A stretch of DNA of 41,524 nt from Minisyncoccota bacterium (GTDB lineage Bacteria > Patescibacteriota > Minisyncoccia > Phycocordibacterales > UBA1550): contig JALNYL010000008.1 in NCBI GenBank assembly GCA_023229865.1, forward strand, positions 1-41,524. Direction: 5' to 3'. A program made the position numbers and the translations under genes. The notes beneath the pieces are model-generated. The model was not told the origin of the DNA. It saw only the letters and a program-made list of their open reading frames with translations, and searched no databases. Positions 1,744-32,583 of the stretch are shown piece after piece (the stretch's first letter is position 1; every line of letters starts with the position of its first letter).

Positions 1744-1835
1744 GAGCTCGAAGGGCTTTACAAAAAAGCTTTTGCGTGATATTGTTTGCAAGGTTTAAAA
1801 ACGTAGTACTTTCCGCAACGTCCTTAGGAGAAAAA

Positions 1836-2054
1836 ATGATTTTGAATCTCGGTATTGCTTATGTCGCTGCTCTCGCTGCTTTTATTGCGCTACTCTACTT
1901 TGCGACGCGCAATAAGCCGGTGCCTCAGGGGTATGATGGTTTCCTTGAAAGCTCTGCGTGCACTAAGGCGACTTCGGCGGAGATCAAACGCGTCGTTGTC
2001 GGTGTTTCGCTTCTTGTTTTCTTTGTTGCCGTACTCTACCTTTTATTTGCGTGA
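1836..2054 (+). CDS. Small membrane protein (two hydrophobic helices), hypothetical
   Basis: An internal ATG at 1836 is preceded by taGGAGaaaaa. The ORF is followed by its own terminator at 2066-2096. Confidence 0.5.
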   Translation: MILNLGIAYVAALAAFIALLYFATRNKPVPQGYDGFLESSACTKATSAEIKRVVVGVSLLVFFVAVLYLLFA

Positions 2055-2065
2055 GTGCACACAGG

Positions 2066-2096
2066 CGCGGCCTTGGTTAACTCCAGGCCGCGTTTT
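2066..2096 (+). terminator. Rho-independent terminator
   Basis: Stem cgcggcc (2066-2072) pairs with ggccgcg (2086-2092), followed by TTTT. Confidence 0.7.
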
Positions 2097-2127
2097 ATAT
2101 TTGCGGGTGTACAGAAATAATTTTGTG

Positions 2128-2136
2128 TGGTAGTTT
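2128..2136 (+). promoter_or_regulatory. Extended -10 element TGGTAGTTT
   Basis: TGTGGTAGTTT at 2126-2136 is identical to 11538-11548. It lies about 40 nt upstream of the SD-bearing ORF at 2175. Confidence 0.4.
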
Positions 2137-2174
2137 TGTTTTTGGGTTGTTCACTCACAGAGGAAGGAAGTAAT

Positions 2175-2408
2175 ATGATAAGTTCGACGCATCAAGTGTT
2201 TGTTGGAGCCCTTCGTTTTTCGCGCGATTTCCGTAAGAAAAGGGCTGAGACACGAAAGAGAAAGAAGCCAACAGATATTTCGCCCGTAGTTACTTTGCCA
2301 CGAAAGACATTAACCACTGTAGTTTTGGTAATGCTTCTCGTGGGAGCTGTGTCGGGGGGTATGTTGTCATACATTCTTTCGAGTGTGTTTCATTGGAATT
2401 GTTATTAG
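2175..2408 (+). CDS. Small basic protein with a C-terminal TM helix, hypothetical
   Basis: ATG 2175 is preceded by GAGGAAGGAAGtaat. The product has a Lys/Arg-rich N-terminus and then a TM segment (TTVVLVMLLVGAVSGGMLSYIL). It has its own terminator at 2429-2465. Confidence 0.45.
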   Translation: MISSTHQVFVGALRFSRDFRKKRAETRKRKKPTDISPVVTLPRKTLTTVVLVMLLVGAVSGGMLSYILSSVFHWNCY

Positions 2409-2428: not shown

Positions 2429-2465
2429 AGCCACGATTTTGGAATCCCAAAATTGTGGCTTTTTC
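2429..2465 (+). terminator. Rho-independent terminator
   Basis: A 14-bp stem, agccacgattttgg/ccaaaattgtggct (one G-T pair), has loop aatc and a T-tract. Confidence 0.75.
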
Positions 2466-2479
2466 TTTTGCTCAATTTC

Positions 2480-2488
2480 TGGTAGAAT
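2480..2488 (+). promoter_or_regulatory. Extended -10 (TGGTAGAAT), putative atp operon promoter
   Basis: A TGn + TAGAAT element lies 16 nt upstream of the atpB ATG and directly after a terminator. Confidence 0.5.
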
Positions 2489-2504
2489 GCGCCCATCTTT
2501 AATT

Positions 2505-3248
2505 ATGGAACAAGAAAGTATTCACATTGCTCTCGCAGCAGAACAAATCGGGACATTTATGGGAATCCCCGTAACCAATACACTTTTGATGAGTCTTATT
2601 GTGTCTCTCCTCTTGATAACTCTCGCTATTGTTGTGCGCAAAAAGCTCTCGCTTATTCCGGGGCGCCTCCAGACTCTTGTTGAAACACTTTTCGTGGGGA
2701 TTCTCGATTATATGTCAGAGACTCTCGAGGATAAGAAGCTCGCGCGCCAGATTTTCCCGCTTGTACTTACTATCTTCCTCTTTATCTTTACCGCAAACAT
2801 TATCGAATTTACTCCTGGGATTGGGAGTATTGGATGGACCCATCCAGAAGGGGAGTTTACCCCGCTCCTTCGTTCGATGAACACCGATCTGAATACCACC
2901 CTCGCGCTTACCCTGATCGTGTTTGTGGTTATTGAGGTGGTGGGGGTGGCGACTCTAGGTTTCTTGAGATATGGTAAGAAATTTGTTAATCTTAGTTCGG
3001 TTCTAGGGTTTATGGTGGGAATTATAGAGCTCTTTTCCGAAGTGGCGCGATTGGTTTCGTACTCATTCCGTCTCTTTGGGAATATCTTTGCAGGCGAAGT
3101 GATGATTCTTGTTATTCAACATTTCGTCCCAATGGTGCTCCCAGTTCCCATCATGCTCTTCGAGGTCTTCGTCGGATTTATTCAGGCGGCGATCTTTGCA
3201 CTCCTCACACTTTTCTTTGTGAAGATGGCGATTACCGAAGCGCATTAA
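2505..3248 (+). CDS. atpB: F0F1 ATP synthase subunit a
   Basis: The polytopic protein carries the subunit-a motif region (SFRLFGNIFAGEV) and is the first gene of the atp cluster. I moved the start to ATG 2505 (MEQESIH), downstream of the promoter. Confidence 0.9.
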   Translation: MEQESIHIALAAEQIGTFMGIPVTNTLLMSLIVSLLLITLAIVVRKKLSLIPGRLQTLVETLFVGILDYMSETLEDKKLARQIFPLVLTIFLFIFTANIIEFTPGIGSIGWTHPEGEFTPLLRSMNTDLNTTLALTLIVFVVIEVVGVATLGFLRYGKKFVNLSSVLGFMVGIIELFSEVARLVSYSFRLFGNIFAGEVMILVIQHFVPMVLPVPIMLFEVFVGFIQAAIFALLTLFFVKMAITEAH

Positions 3249-11519: not shown

Positions 11520-11548
11520 TTGCTAAACACTCGCTCCTGTGGTAGTTT
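11520..11548 (+). promoter_or_regulatory. Sigma70-type promoter TTGCTA-N17-TAGTTT with TGG extension
   Basis: The -35 is at 11520-11525 and the -10 at 11543-11548, with TG at -15/-14. It lies 45 nt upstream of ATG 11593. Confidence 0.55.
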
Positions 11549-11592
11549 CTAGGGAGATTTGTCATTCACTCATGTAGAGAGGAGGTTTCAAG

Positions 11593-12255
11593 ATGAATAC
11601 CAAAGAGCATTGGCTCAAGGGAGTTTTGCTTAATTTTCAAAGTGGCGATGAAGAGAAGAATCAAGAAGCATGGATTTACATCGGCAAAATCACGGGGAAA
11701 AATGCTTCAAGTTTCACTTCTCACGCGGATGCTCTCGCGCATCTGTATGCCGGGCTTTCTAGTGATGGTGAACGCGATGAGTATCTGCGGGAGCTCAGCG
11801 AGCTTGTGCGGCATTCAAAGAAGTATAAGTTTTCTTTGACGACTATGGGTACGATCATCTTGCTTGTGGCACTCATTGAGAAGACTGAAATGTTCGCTGA
11901 CGCATTTGCTCGCAACTTTGTTTTTGCATGGCGTAATGCAGGTGAGCGTTTATTCCTTGCTGCTCAGTTTTTGTCAGTATGTGATGGGTGTGAGGAGAGT
12001 ATTGAAATCTACAAAGCAGTTTTGTATCTCGTGGATCGCAAGTGGATACCGAGAAAATACGCCATGGATGCGTGCTCAGTTCTCCTTTCTGCTCATCCTC
12101 GGGCATGGCTCCGCATATTCACAAGGATGGCTCCCGTGGTAAGTCGGTATAAAAACAAACTTATCCGTGACGGGAGTGAGTATGGGATGAAGGAGTGGGA
12201 ATCACTCGAAAAACTCTTTCTTGCTGAAATAAAAATCCATCTGGAAAAGGTATAG
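11593..12255 (+). CDS. Hypothetical protein (220 aa, probably all-helical)
   Basis: It has a strong SD (GAGAGGAGG) 7 nt before the ATG, plus its own promoter and terminator. I recognised no family. Confidence 0.6.
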   Translation: MNTKEHWLKGVLLNFQSGDEEKNQEAWIYIGKITGKNASSFTSHADALAHLYAGLSSDGERDEYLRELSELVRHSKKYKFSLTTMGTIILLVALIEKTEMFADAFARNFVFAWRNAGERLFLAAQFLSVCDGCEESIEIYKAVLYLVDRKWIPRKYAMDACSVLLSAHPRAWLRIFTRMAPVVSRYKNKLIRDGSEYGMKEWESLEKLFLAEIKIHLEKV

Positions 12256-12262
12256 GTTATTT

Positions 12263-12290
12263 AAAGGTGGCGCGATGCGCCACCTTTTTT
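12263..12290 (+). terminator. Rho-independent terminator
   Basis: Stem ggtggcgc/gcgccacc has loop gat and a T6 tract. Confidence 0.85.
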
Positions 12291-12313
12291 CTTTTGTCTT
12301 TTTGGTGATTTTC

Positions 12314-20700: not shown

Positions 20701-23070
20701 GTGCCTGATAGTTTTGGTACATCAGTTGCCGATACGACAGCTCCTGCATCTTCAAGTATCACCGCGCCGACCGATAACATCAGAAACACATCAGCTGCTG
20801 TTGCGTTTACTACAAACGAGCTCGCAACCGCCGAAGTTCTCTATGGGACGACACACGCGGCAAGCTGTAATTATGCAGGAACCCCGGTAAGCACCCCATA
20901 CTACGTGACATCACAGAGTGTAAATCTCACTGGCCTTACTTCAGATACTACGTATTACTTTTGTGTGAGAACAACAGACGTTCTTGGTAATGTGAGCGCG
21001 TGGGTTGATGGGGGATCGTTTACAACCCTCGGTGGACCTGTCATCACTGCTGTTGCCGACACCAACACCAACGACAATTCGACAACCATTTTCTGGAACA
21101 CTTCAACAAGTTCTGATTCGTACGTTTATTATTCAACAAGCCCATCACTCGCAAATCCTCAAGTCTCAGGGAGTTCGGCGATGGTTGCAGAGTCGGCAAC
21201 CCCTGGCATCTTCCAGCATCAAGTAGGCCTCTCGGGTCTCACTGCGGGTACAACGTACTACTATTCAGTGAAGTCGACCGACAGCTTGGGAAATATTACG
21301 ACCGACACAAAGGGTGGTGTTTACTATGATTTTGTAACAACTGTCGATACGACTGCCCCAGCGATTACCAACATCACGACCCCCGTAAAATCTTCGACTG
21401 CCGTCGTAATTGTGTGGGAGACTGATGAGCCTGCGACGTCGCAAGTCTTGTATGGATCCACCACGGGTGACCGCTCTCGTTTCTTGACTACGGACGCAAC
21501 GAAATCTATTTATCACGTAACGACACTTTCTTCGGCAACAACCAACAGTGGCGCAGCAGGAGGAACAAACGCACTTTCTCCAAGTACGACATACTACTAC
21601 GTCGTGAAGTCAGCTGACACGGCAGGGAATACTGCTACTTCAGCAGAGCAAACAGTTACTACTTCTGAGGCGGGTGCCGTTACTATTGTGACCGTTGTCT
21701 CAGGCGGCGGTGGAGGAGGTGGTGTCGCGGGTGACGCTACTCCTCCGGTGATTGCTGGGGTGAAGGTGAGTGAAGTTACGCCATTTGGTGCGACGGTGAC
21801 CTTTGAAACCAATGAGCAAGTCGTAAGTTTCGTTGAGTATGGCAAGGACACCGCGTACGGCGACAGCGCAGGAAGTTCTTCATATGCAAACAATCATACC
21901 GTTAAACTCCGTGGGCTCACGATGGGGACTGATTACCATATTCGTGTGAAAGCAGTTGACCGTGCGGGCAACATGAGCACTTCTGCTGATCAGACCTTTA
22001 AGACAAGTTTCATTTCTGAAAATCTTAAAGACTTCGCAAACATTGATAACATTGAAGCATTCCAGAAGGAAATCGAAAATGCTATTGAATCAATCCTCCC
22101 ATCGCTCGTACCACCGTTTGTTGCAAAGCCTCAAATCACCAACATCACTGAAGATGGTGCGACGGTAATATTTAGCACCAACATCAAGGCTTATCCAATC
22201 GTCGCCTTTGTGGAGGATAGCCTCTACGACGCTACCAAGGAAAATCCTTACACGAGCGAAATCTCTGATACAGAGAAGAAGGAAAATAATCACAAGATTG
22301 TCATTACCGGTCTCAAGCAGAATACCAAGTATCATCTCGATGCGCGCGCATTTTCGCTTCCTAAGGTTATTGGTAAGGCAGGTGATGTGACGTTTGTTAC
22401 TCAGGCTGCAAAGATTCAGGGTTCTATTGCGGAGCGCAAGAAGGATTCGTTTACCGTAGTTTGGGCAACAGAAGGCAAGACAACGTCGATCGTTGAATTC
22501 AAAAACACAAAGACAGGAATCACGGATCGCCGCACTGATAGTGCTAAGGCCACATCGCACTCAATGAGGATTGAAAACCTCCCTTCAGGCACGACCTTTG
22601 AAGTAAGCATCTCAGGGGTGAATGAGCAGGGGAACACGGTCGTCGCAGGGGCACCACTTATGGTGACTACATCACGCGACACGACCGCACCAGTAATTTC
22701 TGGATTCAAAGTCGACAACGCACTCGTTCCTGGTCGCACGGATCGCATCCAGACTATCGTTTCGTGGACAACTGACGAACCTGCAAATGCGACCGTCTAC
22801 TACGAAGAGGGTACTGGTCCACAAGACGACACAGAAGAGCTCGCCAATAAAAACGAAGCACTCGATGCGTATGTAGTGAACCACAGCGTCATCTTGCCAA
22901 ACTTGAAGCCAGGCACTATTTACCGCATCAAGGTAACCTCGGGCGATGATAGCGGCAACAAGGGTTCGTTTGGTCCACGTACGATCATCACCCCTCGTCA
23001 GACGGAATCAATCACGGATATCATCTTCAAGAACTTCGAAGATTCGTTCAAATTCCTTCGCAAAATCTAG
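17776..23070 (+). CDS. Giant membrane-anchored surface protein: 7-bladed beta-propeller plus multiple Ig/Fn3-like domains
   Basis: An N-terminal TM anchor is followed by seven repeats of about 45 aa of the xVAVSPDGxxVYVAN...RNxxTGxLT type (about 18200-19150). About seven Fn3-like modules with a TTAPxI...YG...YYY.V...D..GN pattern follow (about 20730-22990), with a Gly7 linker between them. Confidence 0.85.
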   Translation: MSIFHHSAAWIAKHKYHHHVFFGSLAFVFASLGVYVYTNDVARAATYNFVQATWVGGVTANTATHTSNQTGWTQYSADSGTILSDINGVSLQPTHHTLPDTGFVGGTHVSTTVSGSGAGATVSMIPVGVLSTLGAGTITAGNRSQGVAVAPEGTAVYVANYGDGTVSQYSRNTSTGALTFLGAVGGLNTPVAVVVSSDGASVYVANYGGNSVTVFARNIAAGTLTSLGAVAAGTGPSGINISADGKSVYVTHSFGSANNTVQQFSRNLSNGTLTALTPASVATGVNPQAVAVSPDGNHVYVSNTTSSYIDEFARNTTTGALTSIGTVVSGNNGFSIVVSPDGNHVYSSHYGTIYQYARNPSTGILTALVPGTVAVGAASKGIAISPDGNSVYSANSTANTVSQLSRNPATGQLTALNPGTVLTGTTPTWVAVSPDGNSVYAANNFNGTNVLSMYTRSNSSTGVFTSRVIDTGAAVAFTTLAYTATLNGETITLDARAGNTATPDGTWTAWQQGIASGGTIAGLAGNRYIQYRANFTTTTSALPVLNSVTISYDTYATTANLTSSIYDTESSGNVFSNVFWTASNTSGTESVRFQIRSSPDGATWTGWCGVANTCNGSDYFTVFSGVVGGISVGHPLITGGDDRYMQYKVSFTSSGVATPFLTSATLQYIVNGPPVVSNVVASQASDGYVTVTYDVSDADNTIGNTVDVTLQYCTTSCASGTEVWADAVSVTGGVGTGTPLGTGKSITWNPTIDYPSQFKEGVQKVRVKADDRATSNNIAYGTSGAFTLSTIQPAVTVSINSAGTQDVVTITATSVFTLEYRLCNASDFTGCATWTPITSGVATPANWSATGTPNAETVYLQVRDQYGNTTSRTIVAPAMPTSLLAADVSNPSAGSFGETVSWTVVPNAVSYRVYSGTSLDVSTPPSSYSLLASPVANMYNHNITTATTSAYWYRVAAVNTNGDVSNFTTAMTNGDVPDSFGTSVADTTAPASSSITAPTDNIRNTSAAVAFTTNELATAEVLYGTTHAASCNYAGTPVSTPYYVTSQSVNLTGLTSDTTYYFCVRTTDVLGNVSAWVDGGSFTTLGGPVITAVADTNTNDNSTTIFWNTSTSSDSYVYYSTSPSLANPQVSGSSAMVAESATPGIFQHQVGLSGLTAGTTYYYSVKSTDSLGNITTDTKGGVYYDFVTTVDTTAPAITNITTPVKSSTAVVIVWETDEPATSQVLYGSTTGDRSRFLTTDATKSIYHVTTLSSATTNSGAAGGTNALSPSTTYYYVVKSADTAGNTATSAEQTVTTSEAGAVTIVTVVSGGGGGGGVAGDATPPVIAGVKVSEVTPFGATVTFETNEQVVSFVEYGKDTAYGDSAGSSSYANNHTVKLRGLTMGTDYHIRVKAVDRAGNMSTSADQTFKTSFISENLKDFANIDNIEAFQKEIENAIESILPSLVPPFVAKPQITNITEDGATVIFSTNIKAYPIVAFVEDSLYDATKENPYTSEISDTEKKENNHKIVITGLKQNTKYHLDARAFSLPKVIGKAGDVTFVTQAAKIQGSIAERKKDSFTVVWATEGKTTSIVEFKNTKTGITDRRTDSAKATSHSMRIENLPSGTTFEVSISGVNEQGNTVVAGAPLMVTTSRDTTAPVISGFKVDNALVPGRTDRIQTIVSWTTDEPANATVYYEEGTGPQDDTEELANKNEALDAYVVNHSVILPNLKPGTIYRIKVTSGDDSGNKGSFGPRTIITPRQTESITDIIFKNFEDSFKFLRKI

Positions 23071-29111: not shown

Positions 29112-30128
29112 ATGGAGCAACAACAAGAACAAAAAGAAACAAGCCGTCCTTCGGGGTTTTTGTCTTCTCTTGGTATCGTGGAACATAAATCAAAAATGAT
29201 GCTCTTTGCATTACTTTTGTTGGTGCTTTCTTCTGCAATCATTTCTTTTTGTCTGATGGCACCGTTTGGGGCCCCAAGTGACGTGACGGTGGATATCAAG
29301 AAGGGGGCGTATCTCACGGAAGTTTCGAGTATGCTCTATGATGCAAATCTTATTCGTTCACGTGTTGCATTTGAGACTTGCGCAAAAATTGTAGGCGGAG
29401 AGAAGCCTGTTGTTGCGAGCTCATATCTTTTTAAAGAACCGCTTTCTGCGTGTGGTATTGCTCTTCGTATTGCACAGGGGATCTCAGGCAAGCCACCTGT
29501 GCGCGTGACGGTCCCCGAGGGAATGTCCAACCAAGAGATGGCTATCGTCCTCGCAAAAGCTTTTCCTGAGTTTAATCGCAATGCTTTTTTTGAGGAGTTT
29601 AGCTCTGACGAAGGATTTCTTTTCCCTGACACGTATTTCTTTTCTGAAGACACAACGATCGATACAGTAGGGAAGACAATGCTTGCGAATTTTAATAAAA
29701 GGATAACCCCGCTTTTGGATGACATCATTGCGTCGGGTCGCCCACTTCGCGATGTGGTTATTATGGCGTCGATTATCGAAAAGGAGGCTTTGACCGAAGA
29801 GGACAAAGCACTTGTATCGGGGATTCTTTGGAAGCGTATCGAAAAAGGGATGCCCCTTCAGGTAGATGCGACATTTATGTATCTCCTTGGCAAAAAATCG
29901 AGCGAGCTCACGCTGGGGGATTTGCAGATGAAGTCTGCGTACAATACATATCAGAACAAAGGCCTCCCTGTGGGACCTATTGGCAACCCGGGCGTTTCTG
30001 CTCTTAATGCCGCGATTCATCCGACTTCATCGCCATATCTCTACTACCTCTCCGACAATGATGGTGTGATGCACTACGCAAAGACGTTTGAAGAGCACAA
30101 GGCGAATAAGGCGAAGTATCTTAGGTAG
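29112..30128 (+). CDS. mltG: Endolytic murein transglycosylase MltG (YceG-like)
   Basis: It has an N-terminal TM helix and YceG motifs (ASIIEKEA, MPLQVDATFMY, YNTYQNKGLPVGPIGNPG). Confidence 0.9.
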   Translation: MEQQQEQKETSRPSGFLSSLGIVEHKSKMMLFALLLLVLSSAIISFCLMAPFGAPSDVTVDIKKGAYLTEVSSMLYDANLIRSRVAFETCAKIVGGEKPVVASSYLFKEPLSACGIALRIAQGISGKPPVRVTVPEGMSNQEMAIVLAKAFPEFNRNAFFEEFSSDEGFLFPDTYFFSEDTTIDTVGKTMLANFNKRITPLLDDIIASGRPLRDVVIMASIIEKEALTEEDKALVSGILWKRIEKGMPLQVDATFMYLLGKKSSELTLGDLQMKSAYNTYQNKGLPVGPIGNPGVSALNAAIHPTSSPYLYYLSDNDGVMHYAKTFEEHKANKAKYLR

Positions 30129-30204
30129 TTTTGACAGGATTGTTACGATATGTCATGCTCGTAAAAGGTGGTCTTTTTCAAATAATCTAGCTGAGGAGGC
30201 ATCG

Positions 30205-30513
30205 ATGCGGAAGTTTAAAAGTGGTGACCTGGTATGGCTGACTAAATTTGCGTTAAGCAAAGATGGTCTCGGGGGTAAGGACTATGTTCCAAATTCTTGC
30301 ACAGGGAAGTTGCTGCAAGGATATGCAATTAAGGTGCATGATTCGGTATCCGTAGTTGAGGGGTCAAAAGCATACTCTGTCCGTTTTGAAGGGGGGTCGT
30401 ATTCGCTTTCCGCTTCCCATTTTGAACTTGCACTTGCGAATAAGAGGAAGGTCCCGTTCGAAATTCTCGTTGAGAGATTTTTGAGAAGCGCGTTCAAATC
30501 ATTCAGCGCTTAA
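30205..30513 (+). CDS. Hypothetical small protein (102 aa)
   Basis: I chose internal ATG 30205 because GAGGAGG lies 5 nt upstream. It has its own terminator at 30526-30561. Confidence 0.55.
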   Translation: MRKFKSGDLVWLTKFALSKDGLGGKDYVPNSCTGKLLQGYAIKVHDSVSVVEGSKAYSVRFEGGSYSLSASHFELALANKRKVPFEILVERFLRSAFKSFSA

Positions 30514-30525
30514 CTTATGTTGTTT

Positions 30526-30561
30526 TATCCGAGCAGAAGCAAATTGCTCGGATAGTTTTTT
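30526..30561 (+). terminator. Rho-independent terminator
   Basis: Stem tatccgagca/tgctcggata has a 9-nt loop and a T6 tract. Confidence 0.8.
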
Positions 30562-30593
30562 GAGGAGATAATTATTTGTCTCTTTAAAAAACT

Positions 30594-31676
30594 ATGAACA
30601 AAAAAACTAAAGGCAAAGTATACGTCGGTATGTCGGGCGGAGTAGATAGCTCGGTTTCCGCTGCGCTCCTCAAGAAGGCAGGATATGACGTGACAGGAGT
30701 TTTTATGAAGGTGTGGCAGCCGGACTTTTTGCCATGCACGTGGCGCGAGGAGAGACTCGATGCGATGCGTGTCGCTGCGACTCTCGGCATTCCGCTCCTT
30801 ACTTGGGATTTTGAAAAAGAATACAAAGAAGGTGTTGCGGATTATATGTTTCGCGAATACAAAGCAGGTCGCACTCCCAACCCCGACGTGATGTGTAATC
30901 GCGAAGTGAAGTTTGGTGCGTTCTTCCGTCGTGCGATGGCCGAGGGTGCAGACTTTGTGGCGACGGGGCACTATGCGCAGTCAGTGCTTGATAAAAAGAC
31001 TGGGGCCACAATGATGCTCAAAGGCGTTGATGATGCGAAGGACCAATCATACTTCTTATGGACACTCGGACAGTCACAACTCTCAAAAACATTTTTCCCC
31101 ATCGGTGGTTACAAAAAATCCGCCGTGCGCGCACTTGCAAAGAAGTTTAACCTTCCCGTCGCTGAGAAGAAAGACAGTCAGGGGCTCTGCTTTGTGGGCA
31201 AGCTCGATATGAAGGATTTCCTCGCGCACTTTATCGAAGAGAAAGAGGGAAGTGTTTTGAATGAGCAGGGTGAAGTAATCGGCACACACCGTGGCGCGTA
31301 TTTCTATACACTCGGTGAGCGTCACGGATTTTTGATTACAAAAAAGAGTGCCGAAGACACCCCTTACTACATTGTCGCAAAAGATTTTGAAGCAAACACA
31401 ATCACTGTCGCGCACCAGGGCAAAAAGGACTTGGGATGCGCGTCACGTGATATCAGCGTTACGCAGGCAAGTTTTTGTCGTGGCGTATTGCCAGAGATAA
31501 AAAAGAATTACACCGTGCAAGTGCGCTATCACGGCGAGCAGTATAAATGCAAAATTGTTTCCTTCGGTGACAACGTTTTTTCGCTTCGTCTCGAGAAACC
31601 AGCCGTATTCGACGTAGGACAATCCGTGGTTCTTTACGACGGCAAAGAATGTCTCGGTGGTGGGATTATTGGGTAA
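30594..31676 (+). CDS. mnmA: tRNA 2-thiouridine(34) synthase MnmA
   Basis: It has the PP-loop VGMSGGVDSSVSAALL and the catalytic Cys regions (NPDVMCNREVKF, SQGLCFVG). Confidence 0.95.
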   Translation: MNKKTKGKVYVGMSGGVDSSVSAALLKKAGYDVTGVFMKVWQPDFLPCTWREERLDAMRVAATLGIPLLTWDFEKEYKEGVADYMFREYKAGRTPNPDVMCNREVKFGAFFRRAMAEGADFVATGHYAQSVLDKKTGATMMLKGVDDAKDQSYFLWTLGQSQLSKTFFPIGGYKKSAVRALAKKFNLPVAEKKDSQGLCFVGKLDMKDFLAHFIEEKEGSVLNEQGEVIGTHRGAYFYTLGERHGFLITKKSAEDTPYYIVAKDFEANTITVAHQGKKDLGCASRDISVTQASFCRGVLPEIKKNYTVQVRYHGEQYKCKIVSFGDNVFSLRLEKPAVFDVGQSVVLYDGKECLGGGIIG

Positions 31677-31707
31677 TTATGCTACTGAGCTGAACTACCG
31701 CGCTATC

Positions 31708-31736
31708 TTGACTTTATGTTATCAATATGCTATAGT
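31708..31736 (+). promoter_or_regulatory. Near-consensus promoter TTGACT-N17-TATAGT with TGC extension
   Basis: The -35 is at 31708-31713 and the -10 at 31731-31736, about 60 nt upstream of ATG 31796. Confidence 0.65.
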
Positions 31737-31795
31737 TCTAGGGTCAGGAATGTCACTTTTCCTTTGAAAAAGGTTCTTGATAAAGGAGGGAACAA

Positions 31796-32086
31796 ATGCA
31801 ACAAACAGCAATGAGTGCAGCGCTTGTAAAAGCGGGCCTGGTAACCGAAGTTCAAGTAGTGAGGGCAGAGAACGTCCGACATCATCTGCAACCCTATGCT
31901 GGGCAGATTATGGAGATTAAACGATTAACCACATTGTTTTCTCAGGAGGGGGTGGAAATGTCGTTGCTTGATATCGGGACTACTGTAGCTTTTGAGGCCA
32001 TGGTCAAACGTAAGGAGTACGATGAAGCCTACGAGATGATGCTTACGCATTTGAAGAAGGTCGCGGCTAAGCACGGTCTCGTTTAG
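31796..32086 (+). CDS. Hypothetical small protein (96 aa) carried on the insert in the mnmA 3' end
   Basis: It has SD AAGGAGGG 5 nt before the ATG, plus its own promoter and terminator. Confidence 0.6.
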   Translation: MQQTAMSAALVKAGLVTEVQVVRAENVRHHLQPYAGQIMEIKRLTTLFSQEGVEMSLLDIGTTVAFEAMVKRKEYDEAYEMMLTHLKKVAAKHGLV

Positions 32087-32126
32087 TCTGACATAAAAGG
32101 AGGGTTCAATCATGGAGACATGACAT

Positions 32127-32157
32127 GCCGGCGCTAAATGTGCCGGCTTTCTTTTTT
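32127..32157 (+). terminator. Rho-independent terminator
   Basis: Stem gccggcgc/gtgccggc has loop taaat and tail tttctttttt. Confidence 0.8.
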
Positions 32158-32222
32158 GATCGTGGACAATCAGTGGTGCTCTATGACGGGAAGGAGTGTT
32201 TGGGGGGGGAATCATTGAATAG
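32155..32222 (+). pseudogene. Displaced relic of the mnmA 3' end
   Basis: It translates FDRGQSVVLYDGKECLGG, against FDVGQSVVLYDGKECLGGGIIG in mnmA. It loses frame in the G8 run 32202-32209, and one extra G restores LGGGIIE-stop. Confidence 0.75.
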
Positions 32223-32235
32223 AATATTGAATTTG
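32215..32235 (+). repeat. NNNGAAT heptamer array (3 units)
   Basis: The sequence is ttGAATaGAATattGAATttg and contains the 11-mer GAATATTGAAT shared with 33463, 39134, 39155 and 39272 (reverse). Confidence 0.6.
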
Positions 32236-32261
32236 ACGCATTCATGCGGTCGTGGTAGTTA
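32233..32261 (+). promoter_or_regulatory. Promoter TTGACG-N17-TAGTTA with TGG extension
   Basis: The -35 is at 32233-32238 and the -10 at 32256-32261, about 40 nt upstream of ATG 32301. Confidence 0.6.
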
Positions 32262-32300
32262 TTATAAGAGATTAACCTAAATCTGATAAAGGGGAACGTA

Positions 32301-32510
32301 ATGGCTCTCGTTGAGATTGGTTCAAGAAAGGTTCCAGATGATGAAGGCGGGTGGTATTGGATGAAATGGGCAAACGGACCATGGGAACCCGCTCTTGTTC
32401 AGCCCGCAAAAGATGGGGAAACACCAAAGATTTTTCTTTCGAAAACTGCGGTTGCGGTGACTCATCCGTATCTTCGTTGGGGACATCAAATCTTCCCTCC
32501 GGAGAAATAG
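32301..32510 (+). CDS. Hypothetical small Trp-rich protein (69 aa)
   Basis: It has SD AAAGGGGAA 5 nt before the ATG, plus its own promoter and terminator. Confidence 0.55.
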   Translation: MALVEIGSRKVPDDEGGWYWMKWANGPWEPALVQPAKDGETPKIFLSKTAVAVTHPYLRWGHQIFPPEK

Positions 32511-32536
32511 GGGCGTGGAAACACGCTCCTTTTTTA
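32509..32536 (+). terminator. Rho-independent terminator
   Basis: Stem aggggcgtg/cacgctcct (one G-T pair) has loop gaaa and a T-tract. Confidence 0.75.
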
Positions 32537-32583
32537 TATTTAAACTTCCAAATTTTTCTGACGTATGAGACAATGTATAAATA

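Follow-up and report, generated by a model that had tools for sequence, protein, structure and literature searches.

Genomes in which leaderless genes stand beside genes led by a Shine-Dalgarno (SD) sequence make up "group C" of GeneMarkS-2 and are known from the Actinobacteria and from Deinococcus-Thermus. The Bacteroidia keep the anti-SD sequence but occlude it; in work on Flavobacterium johnsoniae, initiation in this group is reportedly SD independent, and an SD survives in a few genes, among them rpsU. Furthermore, the accessible portions of two papers describe the loss of the anti-SD in a subgroup of Parcubacteria that lacks uL1 (Tsurumaki et al. 2022, RNA 28:1041, PMC9297842) and SD-scarce organisms that lack CCUCC (Estrada et al. 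2024, PMC10783764); in the literature, as far as its text was accessible, no paper was found on a conserved SD-like minority class in anti-SD-less genomes. The DNA described here is contig JALNYL010000008.1 of a Minisyncoccota bacterium (41.5 kb, positions 1 to 41,524; our C37), and "the window" denotes this entire contig. It belongs to a genome of the Candidatus Yonathbacteria type (Parcubacteria, candidate phyla radiation [CPR]/Patescibacteria; GCA_023229865.1, hereafter G000; 950 kb, 51 contigs, 47% GC, 97% complete) and carries six short open reading frames (ORFs), orf1 to orf6, which an earlier note had described as autonomous cassettes of promoter, leader, SD, and terminator. We consider it probable that all six are genuine genes for small proteins, that each is transcribed as a unit of its own, and that they belong to a conserved, genome-wide minority class of "leadered" genes.

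Like the genomes of group C, G000 has two start architectures, one with a −10 box 6 to 8 nt before the ATG and one leadered and of the AGGAGG type. Unlike them, it has a 16S rRNA without CCUCC, and its SD-led class consists of small, fast-evolving, mostly lineage-specific genes rather than of ordinary leadered ones. A tail without CCUCC and a majority of SD-less genes are features it has in common with the organisms of PMC9297842 and PMC10783764, as far as the accessible text of these papers goes, whereas the conserved minority with a canonical-looking, correctly spaced AAGGAGG sets it apart from them. With the Bacteroidia it shares A-rich start contexts and a strong SD in a small gene set only; in contrast to them, the anti-SD is absent from the 16S gene itself, and the SD set comprises small orphan-like proteins and not a ribosomal protein. 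In form, nothing distinguishes the six units from common monocistronic genes of bacteria; it is the setting that is unusual, a genome mostly without leaders and SDs and a ribosome without an anti-SD.

The evidence for the class comes from G000 and from the genome of its nearest relative (G044; 859 kb, almost all of which was compared, with every G000 gene). Throughout the genome, the contexts of start codons are rich in A and poor in G, with A at −3, −6, and −11/−12, and most genes have no SD. A scan for start signals that needs no gene calls, in which k-mers are recorded at a fixed distance before any ATG, returned only two strong signals, the same in both genomes. The first consists of −10 hexamers (TATAAT, TATACT, TACAAT, and similar) 6 to 8 nt upstream of the ATG, which points to leaderless mRNAs. 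The second is AAGGAG(G/A)(T) 4 to 8 nt upstream of the ATG, where AAGGAG, AGGAGG, and GGAGGT all peak; it rises above background in about 100 genes, or some 10% of the total. With an ATG 5 to 7 nt behind it, AGGAG or GGAGG occurs at 2 to 2.6 times baseline in G000 and a relative. Promoter-like sites (TTGACA, one mismatch allowed, N16-18, TAnnnT), 251 of which were paired with an ORF, separate the two layouts: an SD is present in 1 of 65 cases if the site lies at most 20 nt from the ATG and in 40 of 85 if it lies 30 to 60 nt away. Furthermore, a −10 box of the form TAGnnT, with G in third position and often preceded by TGG, is tied to SD-led ORFs in G000 (odds ratio of 5.3, p = 1e-6) and in G044 (odds ratio of 3.1, p = 1.5e-4), whereas G occupies the third −10 position in only 10 to 16% of leaderless-type boxes. 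These statistics indicate that a TGGTAGTT-type −10 box combined with a leader and GGAGG is a real, recurrent architecture, of which further examples are found at C28:18782, C42:80545, C42:81774, and C42:70446. Hence, the earlier idea of a distinct class of accessory expression units is borne out insofar as SD-like sites and TAGnnT boxes are not equally frequent at core genes. Among the 865 genes of G000 (heuristic start choice; 80% of the genome called coding), the classes compare as follows (GC3, GC content at third codon positions):

SD-led genes: n = 98, median length of 158 aa, mean GC3 of 0.54, homolog in G044 for 45%, median identity of 53%.
Leaderless genes: n = 142, median length of 225 aa, mean GC3 of 0.48, homolog in G044 for 86%, median identity of 80%.
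Other genes: n = 599, median length of 240 aa, mean GC3 of 0.48, homolog in G044 for 74%, median identity of 83%.

The gap in conservation between SD-led and leaderless genes is pronounced (Fisher p = 1.8e-11). Despite diverged leaders, the strict motif stands at the right spacing in 62% of the G044 orthologs of the SD class, compared to 1% for the other classes, which is strong evidence of selection on the motif. The leaderless layout, for its part, is kept in 73% of the orthologs of leaderless genes.

The class also contains tandem pairs of small SD-led paralogs, in which a nearly identical TTGACx-N17-TAGnnT promoter precedes each copy. Paired HxT motifs (THITLKAPF and HLHITLAK) are present in the C33 pair, which, judged by eye, may resemble 2H phosphoesterases.

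C33, minus strand: pair with ATGs at 22120 and 21464.
C31, plus strand: pair with ATGs at 69640 and 70214.
C42, minus strand: pair with ATGs at 70868 and 70401.

The six units of the window are made up of the elements listed below; loci L083 to L088, mentioned here and further on, are contigs that carry homologs of orf4, orf5, or orf6 or counterparts of the mnmA region (CDS, coding sequence).

1757-1785, plus strand: orf1 promoter, TTTACA-N17-(TGa)TATTGT, read from the sequence.
1826-2054, plus strand: orf1, AGGAG at 1826-1830, 5 nt before the ATG, and a 72-aa CDS at 1836-2054.
2066-2098, plus strand: orf1 intrinsic terminator, CGCGGCCT...AGGCCGCG and then a T run, read from the sequence.
2108-2136, plus strand: orf2 promoter, TGTACA-N17-TAGTTT with a TGTGG extension.
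2161-2408, plus strand: orf2, GAGGAAGGAAG 3 nt before the ATG and a 77-aa CDS at 2175-2408.
2430-2469, plus strand: orf2 intrinsic terminator, read from the sequence.
11520-11548, plus strand: orf3 promoter, TTGCTA-N17-TAGTTT with a TGTGG extension.
11580-12255, plus strand: orf3, AGGAGG at 11580-11585, 7 nt before the ATG, and a 220-aa CDS at 11593-12255.
12262-12295, plus strand: orf3 intrinsic terminator, with a hairpin that resembles those behind the G044 copies.
30123-30161, plus strand: block upstream of orf4, with AGGTAGTTT, TTGACA at 30133-30138, and a conserved ATATGTCATGCT.
30193-30513, plus strand: orf4, GAGGAGG 5 nt before the ATG and a 102-aa CDS at 30205-30513.
30525-30565, plus strand: orf4 intrinsic terminator, from the terminator scan.
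31708-31736, plus strand: orf5 promoter, TTGACT-N17-(TGc)TATAGT, the −35 box of which is kept in L083 and L084.
31783-32086, plus strand: orf5, AAGGAGG 6 nt before the ATG and a 96-aa CDS at 31796-32086.
32127-32157, plus strand: orf5 intrinsic terminator, from the terminator scan.
32233-32261, plus strand: orf6 promoter, TTGACG-N17-TAGTTA with a TGG extension.
32288-32510, plus strand: orf6, AAAGGGGAA 4 nt before the ATG and a 69-aa CDS at 32301-32510.
32509-32540, plus strand: orf6 intrinsic terminator, from the terminator scan.

Much of what the earlier note had read in these units was found again. All six frames are open where it had placed them, a purine-rich, SD-like motif precedes each of the six ATGs (at a measured distance of 3 to 7 nt), and the leaders of "tens of nt" come to about 40 to 60 nt, with a gap between −10 box and ATG of 38 to 59 nt in the five units with an assignable box. 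Every unit has a hairpin/T-tract terminator of its own, detected by the terminator scan behind orf4, orf5, and orf6 and visible in the sequence behind orf1, orf2, and orf3. The −35 box of the TTGnnn type at exactly 17 nt is present in the three units for which it had been claimed (TTGCTA in orf3, TTGACT in orf5, and TTGACG in orf6), and these three show the full sigma-70 extended −10 layout (TGn plus TAnnnT, with TTGnnn at 17 ± 1 bp). To them we add promoters for orf2 (TGTACA-17-TAGTTT) and orf1 (TTTACA-17-TATTGT), in which the −35 boxes are weaker. The leaderless layout, a −10 box ending 6 to 8 nt before the start and no SD, is found in none of the five units with an assignable box. An extended −10 box had been ascribed to five units; it stands for orf2, orf3, orf5, and orf6 but is doubtful for orf4, where AGGTAGTTT at 30123 includes the stop codon TAG of mltG (30126-30128) and has no −35 box. 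In the homologous loci L085 and L088, the conserved block is TTGACAGG...ATATGTCATGCTCGTAAAAGG and not the box at 30123; the promoter assignment of orf4 is uncertain, and read-through from mltG is possible. The 11-mer TGTGGTAGTTT does occur without any difference at 2126-2136 and 11538-11548, and nowhere else in the genome. As a repeated element, the exact 11-mer was rejected: its count in the genus is 24, compared to 60 for the reversed control. No known RNA leader or riboswitch in the window was matched by Rfam.

As to the products, none of the six yielded anything above threshold in Pfam, PHROGs, or PADLOC, in agreement with the earlier view that they belong to no assignable family. By their coding scores, orf1 (99th percentile of antisense frames), orf3, orf5, and orf6 clearly resemble genes. 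By eye, the orf1 product looks like a small two-helix membrane protein, and orf2 has a hydrophobic C-terminal stretch. AlphaFold models predict a helical bundle for orf5 (pLDDT of 82) and a small beta barrel for orf6 (pLDDT of 84), and fold searches with these two models gave no significant match in the PDB. In the window's own gene call (P0002), orf5 apparently has 58 aa and begins at an internal Met, while the conserved protein has 96 aa and starts after AAGGAGG. Next to the SD-led orf2, an atpB-like gene has its ATG at 2505, 16 nt past a TGGTAGAAT extended −10 box (window 2480-2507), the short-leader, SD-less layout of a core gene.

Five of the six ORFs are conserved, orf3 to orf6 by sequence and orf2 marginally and by position. 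The term "orphan" did not survive for orf3: two paralogs of it stand in tandem in G044 (48% and 36% identity), and six further clusters occur in a representative library of 1.8 billion proteins, so that the family comprises, with the window's own, 7 clusters at 50% identity. Both G044 paralogs have a TTGCYAAA-N11-TGTGGTAGTTT promoter and AAGGAG, and their terminators are similar to that of orf3. The slot of orf1 and orf2 is occupied in G044 by a pair of small ORFs with hydrophobic products, and the promoter contexts are the same. The positional counterpart of orf1 lies behind TTTACA-N17-TATTAT and is no sequence homolog; that of orf2 has the promoter context gtacagaaa...TGGTAGTTT, with gtacagaaaatatatttcgTGGTAGTTT in the same place, and is only marginally similar (25% identity over 52 aa, E = 0.009). 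By contrast, orf4, orf5, and orf6 were not found among 40 related genomes but have full-length homologs of 60 to 87% identity in a few metagenome contigs. Those of orf4 (66 to 68% identity) always lie between mltG and mnmA, those of orf5 (86% and 60%) directly after mnmA, and those of orf6 (87% and 66%) between mnmA and the next conserved gene. In these loci, the −35, −10, and SD-like elements are kept, while spacers and leaders differ; in L086, for instance, the −35 box of orf6 and TGGTAGTT are kept and the spacer differs. The three genes are under purifying selection, with ratios of nonsynonymous to synonymous substitution rates (dN/dS) of 0.15 to 0.20 for orf4, 0.24 for orf5, and 0.07 to 0.21 for orf6.

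The canonical partner of an SD is missing. The G000 assembly has no full 16S gene, but contig C31 begins with a 16S 3′ end, ...AAGUCGUAACAAGGCACGGCUAGCGGAAGCUGGUCGUGAAUCAAUUCAAAA, and this tail (C31:1-122; ...GAAUCAAUUCAAAA, written also ...GGAAGCUGGUCGUGAAUCAAUUCAAAA and ...AAUUCAAAA) contains no CCUCC; six full 16S genes of the genus have the same tail. In the Rfam alignment, AUUCA takes the place of the consensus CCUCC (tail AUCAAUUCAAAA versus bacterial consensus AUCACCUCCUUU), so that the 16S 3′ end of G000, inspected for an anti-SD, has none. Of the canonical SD system, the window's genome thus shows the motif matching AAGGAGGU at a fixed short distance but not the complementary CCUCC in its own 16S tail. 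The enriched motif AAGGAGGT nevertheless looks, over eight positions, like the complement of a canonical tail. No partner for it turned up in G000 among complements of the real tail, the 16S trailer, and CsrA. The complements of the real tail (GAATTG, TGAATT, TTGAAT, and AATTGA), candidates for an alternative SD, are not enriched at any fixed distance from the ATG. Nor is there support for an anti-SD relocated to the 16S trailer: CU-rich stretches exist there, but the bases that resemble CCUCC are part of covarying stems or a pseudoknot, and they vary by species (CUCUC in G000 and CUCCU in G044), unlike the mRNA motif, which remains AGGAG. A genome-wide search of noncoding DNA for ACCUCCUU-type sequences was swamped by the antisense of SD sites, and CsrA was dismissed as a reader of the motif, PF02599 having no match in this 97%-complete genome.

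The trailer itself, a conserved and heavily covarying stretch of about 185 nt that follows the 16S gene (C31:1-330; loci L074 to L079), has 19 compensatory pairs and a likely pseudoknot, and its predicted fold pairs the 16S tail AUCAAUUCA with a downstream UGAAUUGGU. A processing stem, formed by a 30-nt segment complementary to the 16S 5′ leader, is placed only past the trailer. The trailer may, as modeled, be a retained 3′ extension of the rRNA.

In the model that we favor, a leadered unit would have a sigma-70-type promoter with a near-consensus −35 box, a 17-bp spacer, and a TG-extended −10 box, often TAGnnT, followed by a leader of 35 to 60 nt, an AAGGAGG-like element 4 to 8 nt before the AUG, a short CDS, and an intrinsic terminator. 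Most other genes would be leaderless, with a −10 box 6 to 8 nt before the ATG, or operon internal, with A-rich, G-poor start contexts. The leadered class would mostly encode short, fast-evolving, lineage-restricted proteins in fixed slots between conserved genes, and recombination among related Candidatus Yonathbacteria, not a mobile-element mechanism, would account for the gain, loss, and exchange of its members. Transcription start sites, the actual translation of the ORFs, and a promoting effect of AAGGAGG on initiation are what we infer from the sequence. Several points weigh against this model. The gene calls are crude and the starts heuristic, which makes the class sizes approximate; G000 and G044 are related, and the replication in G044 is not independent; the codon scores of orf2 (67th percentile) and orf4 are ambiguous; orf1 and orf2 have no clear sequence homologs; and the SD-like motif cannot pair with G000's own 16S tail. 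The last point leaves the proposed role in initiation without a known reader. We entertain only tentatively, and would stop short of calling it probable, that in anti-SD-less Parcubacteria the conserved AAGGAGG 4 to 8 nt before the AUG is a working initiation signal read by something other than the canonical 16S tail; a protein, another rRNA segment, or the retained 16S 3′ extension would be candidate readers. If this is true, a second start pathway is reserved for the leadered mRNAs of fast-evolving small proteins, SD:anti-SD pairing is not the sole way in which such a sequence marks starts, and CPR bacteria offer a natural system with two initiation modes, one for core and one for fast-evolving genes. 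Gene callers built on a single model of the ribosome-binding site mis-start such genes, as exemplified by orf5 with 58 instead of 96 aa, and may miss some entirely. These otherwise streamlined genomes vary in their small slot-bound genes, which makes the latter candidates for functions in host interaction or at the cell surface of episymbiotic CPR bacteria.

The TAGnnT boxes invite another explanation, a dedicated regulon, in which a specialized sigma factor or regulator reads a TGGTAG/TAGnnT −10 box and coregulates small fast-evolving genes. The association of TAGnnT with SD-led genes in two genomes would fit, as would the enrichment of TGGTAG and GTGGTA upstream of genes, the conservation of the −10 subtype at orthologs, and the presence of two small sigma-70-family genes besides one RpoD-size sigma factor. 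However, the −35 box is the housekeeping TTGACA with a 17-bp spacer, and sigma factors of extracytoplasmic function (ECF) size usually read quite different boxes. Furthermore, about half of the SD-led genes, orf1 and orf5 included, have a non-TAG −10 box, and TGTGGTAGTTT also lies about 34 nt upstream of a core gene, mnmA, in one relative. On balance, we regard a dedicated regulon as unlikely.

The earlier note had also thought of mobile units, that is, promoter-ORF-terminator modules that move between sites and genomes in the manner of phage morons or integron-like cassettes. The likeness is plain: single genes with their own promoter and terminator are wedged between conserved genes, the units are self-contained, and the distribution of orf4, orf5, and orf6 is patchy. 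In addition, two diverged mnmA 3′ ends flank orf5, a live one (window 31617-31676) and a displaced one, the sole insertion scar among the units:

32158-32222, plus strand: remnant of the mnmA 3′ end, ...DRGQSVVLYDGKECLGG followed by a frameshift in a G run.

This displaced tail, the last ~20 codons of mnmA, agrees with the live one in 15 encoded residues, 10 codons of which differ synonymously. Together with the orf6 promoter, it has its homolog in the live mnmA tail and orf6 promoter of L086, which points to mnmA-orf6 as the older arrangement, in front of which a complete mnmA end and the orf5 unit were joined later; the remnant also matches the mnmA tail of L084, where the right-hand junction is apparently the same as in the window and the live tail is different. 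From the sequences, recombination between related genomes, with one of the junctions illegitimate, is the best explanation of the scar, which does not look like transposition. The scar resembles homology-facilitated illegitimate recombination, a concept from studies of natural transformation, in that one homologous and one illegitimate crossover would account for it, and it differs in that the case of orf5 is built on the scar alone. A duplicated gene tail as a general mark of insertion was rejected: genome-wide only mnmA has one, and the other top matches are tandem paralogs. A further argument for mobility might be seen in L087, a metagenome contig otherwise identical to the window, in which about 30 substitutions, synonymous and nonsynonymous, are confined to a patch of ~160 nt within orf6 (window 32346-32503); judged by its sequence, this patch looks like a localized recombination tract or an allele swap at orf6.

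What speaks against mobile modules is, above all, that every homolog occupies the same syntenic slot. In contrast to morons and integron cassettes, there is no phage or integron backbone, no attC site, and no integrase; recombinase genes, att-like end repeats common to the units, and matches to phage families (PHROGs) or PADLOC are likewise missing, and none of the six was found at different genomic sites. Moreover, orf1, orf2, and orf3 are vertically inherited with their promoters, about half of the SD-led genes genome-wide are common to the nearest relative, and no second tail duplication exists in the genome. We consider mobile modules quite unlikely, and the word "mobile" finds no support.

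That the small ORFs are noncoding and the SD-like motifs incidental purine runs in intergenic DNA, as the weak codon scores of orf2 and orf4 and the missing family annotation of all six products might suggest, is highly improbable in view of the full-length homologs with dN/dS of 0.07 to 0.24, the positional enrichment of the motif and its retention at orthologs far above background (62% versus 1%), and the confident AlphaFold models of orf5 and orf6, and for orf3, orf4, orf5, and orf6 this reading is largely refuted.

The slots around mnmA are a fixed feature of the genus. The gene order mltG-mnmA-next gene is the same throughout, and the gaps flanking mnmA, which vary widely in length (31 to 478 nt on one side and 31 to 1084 nt on the other), are often occupied by further small SD-led ORFs. 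In L005, L007, and L010, the slot after mnmA is filled by another small-gene family (123 to 161 aa), whose leader and start, aatccgttgaccGGAGG(a/t)t(g/t)a(g/t/a)ATG, are almost invariant.

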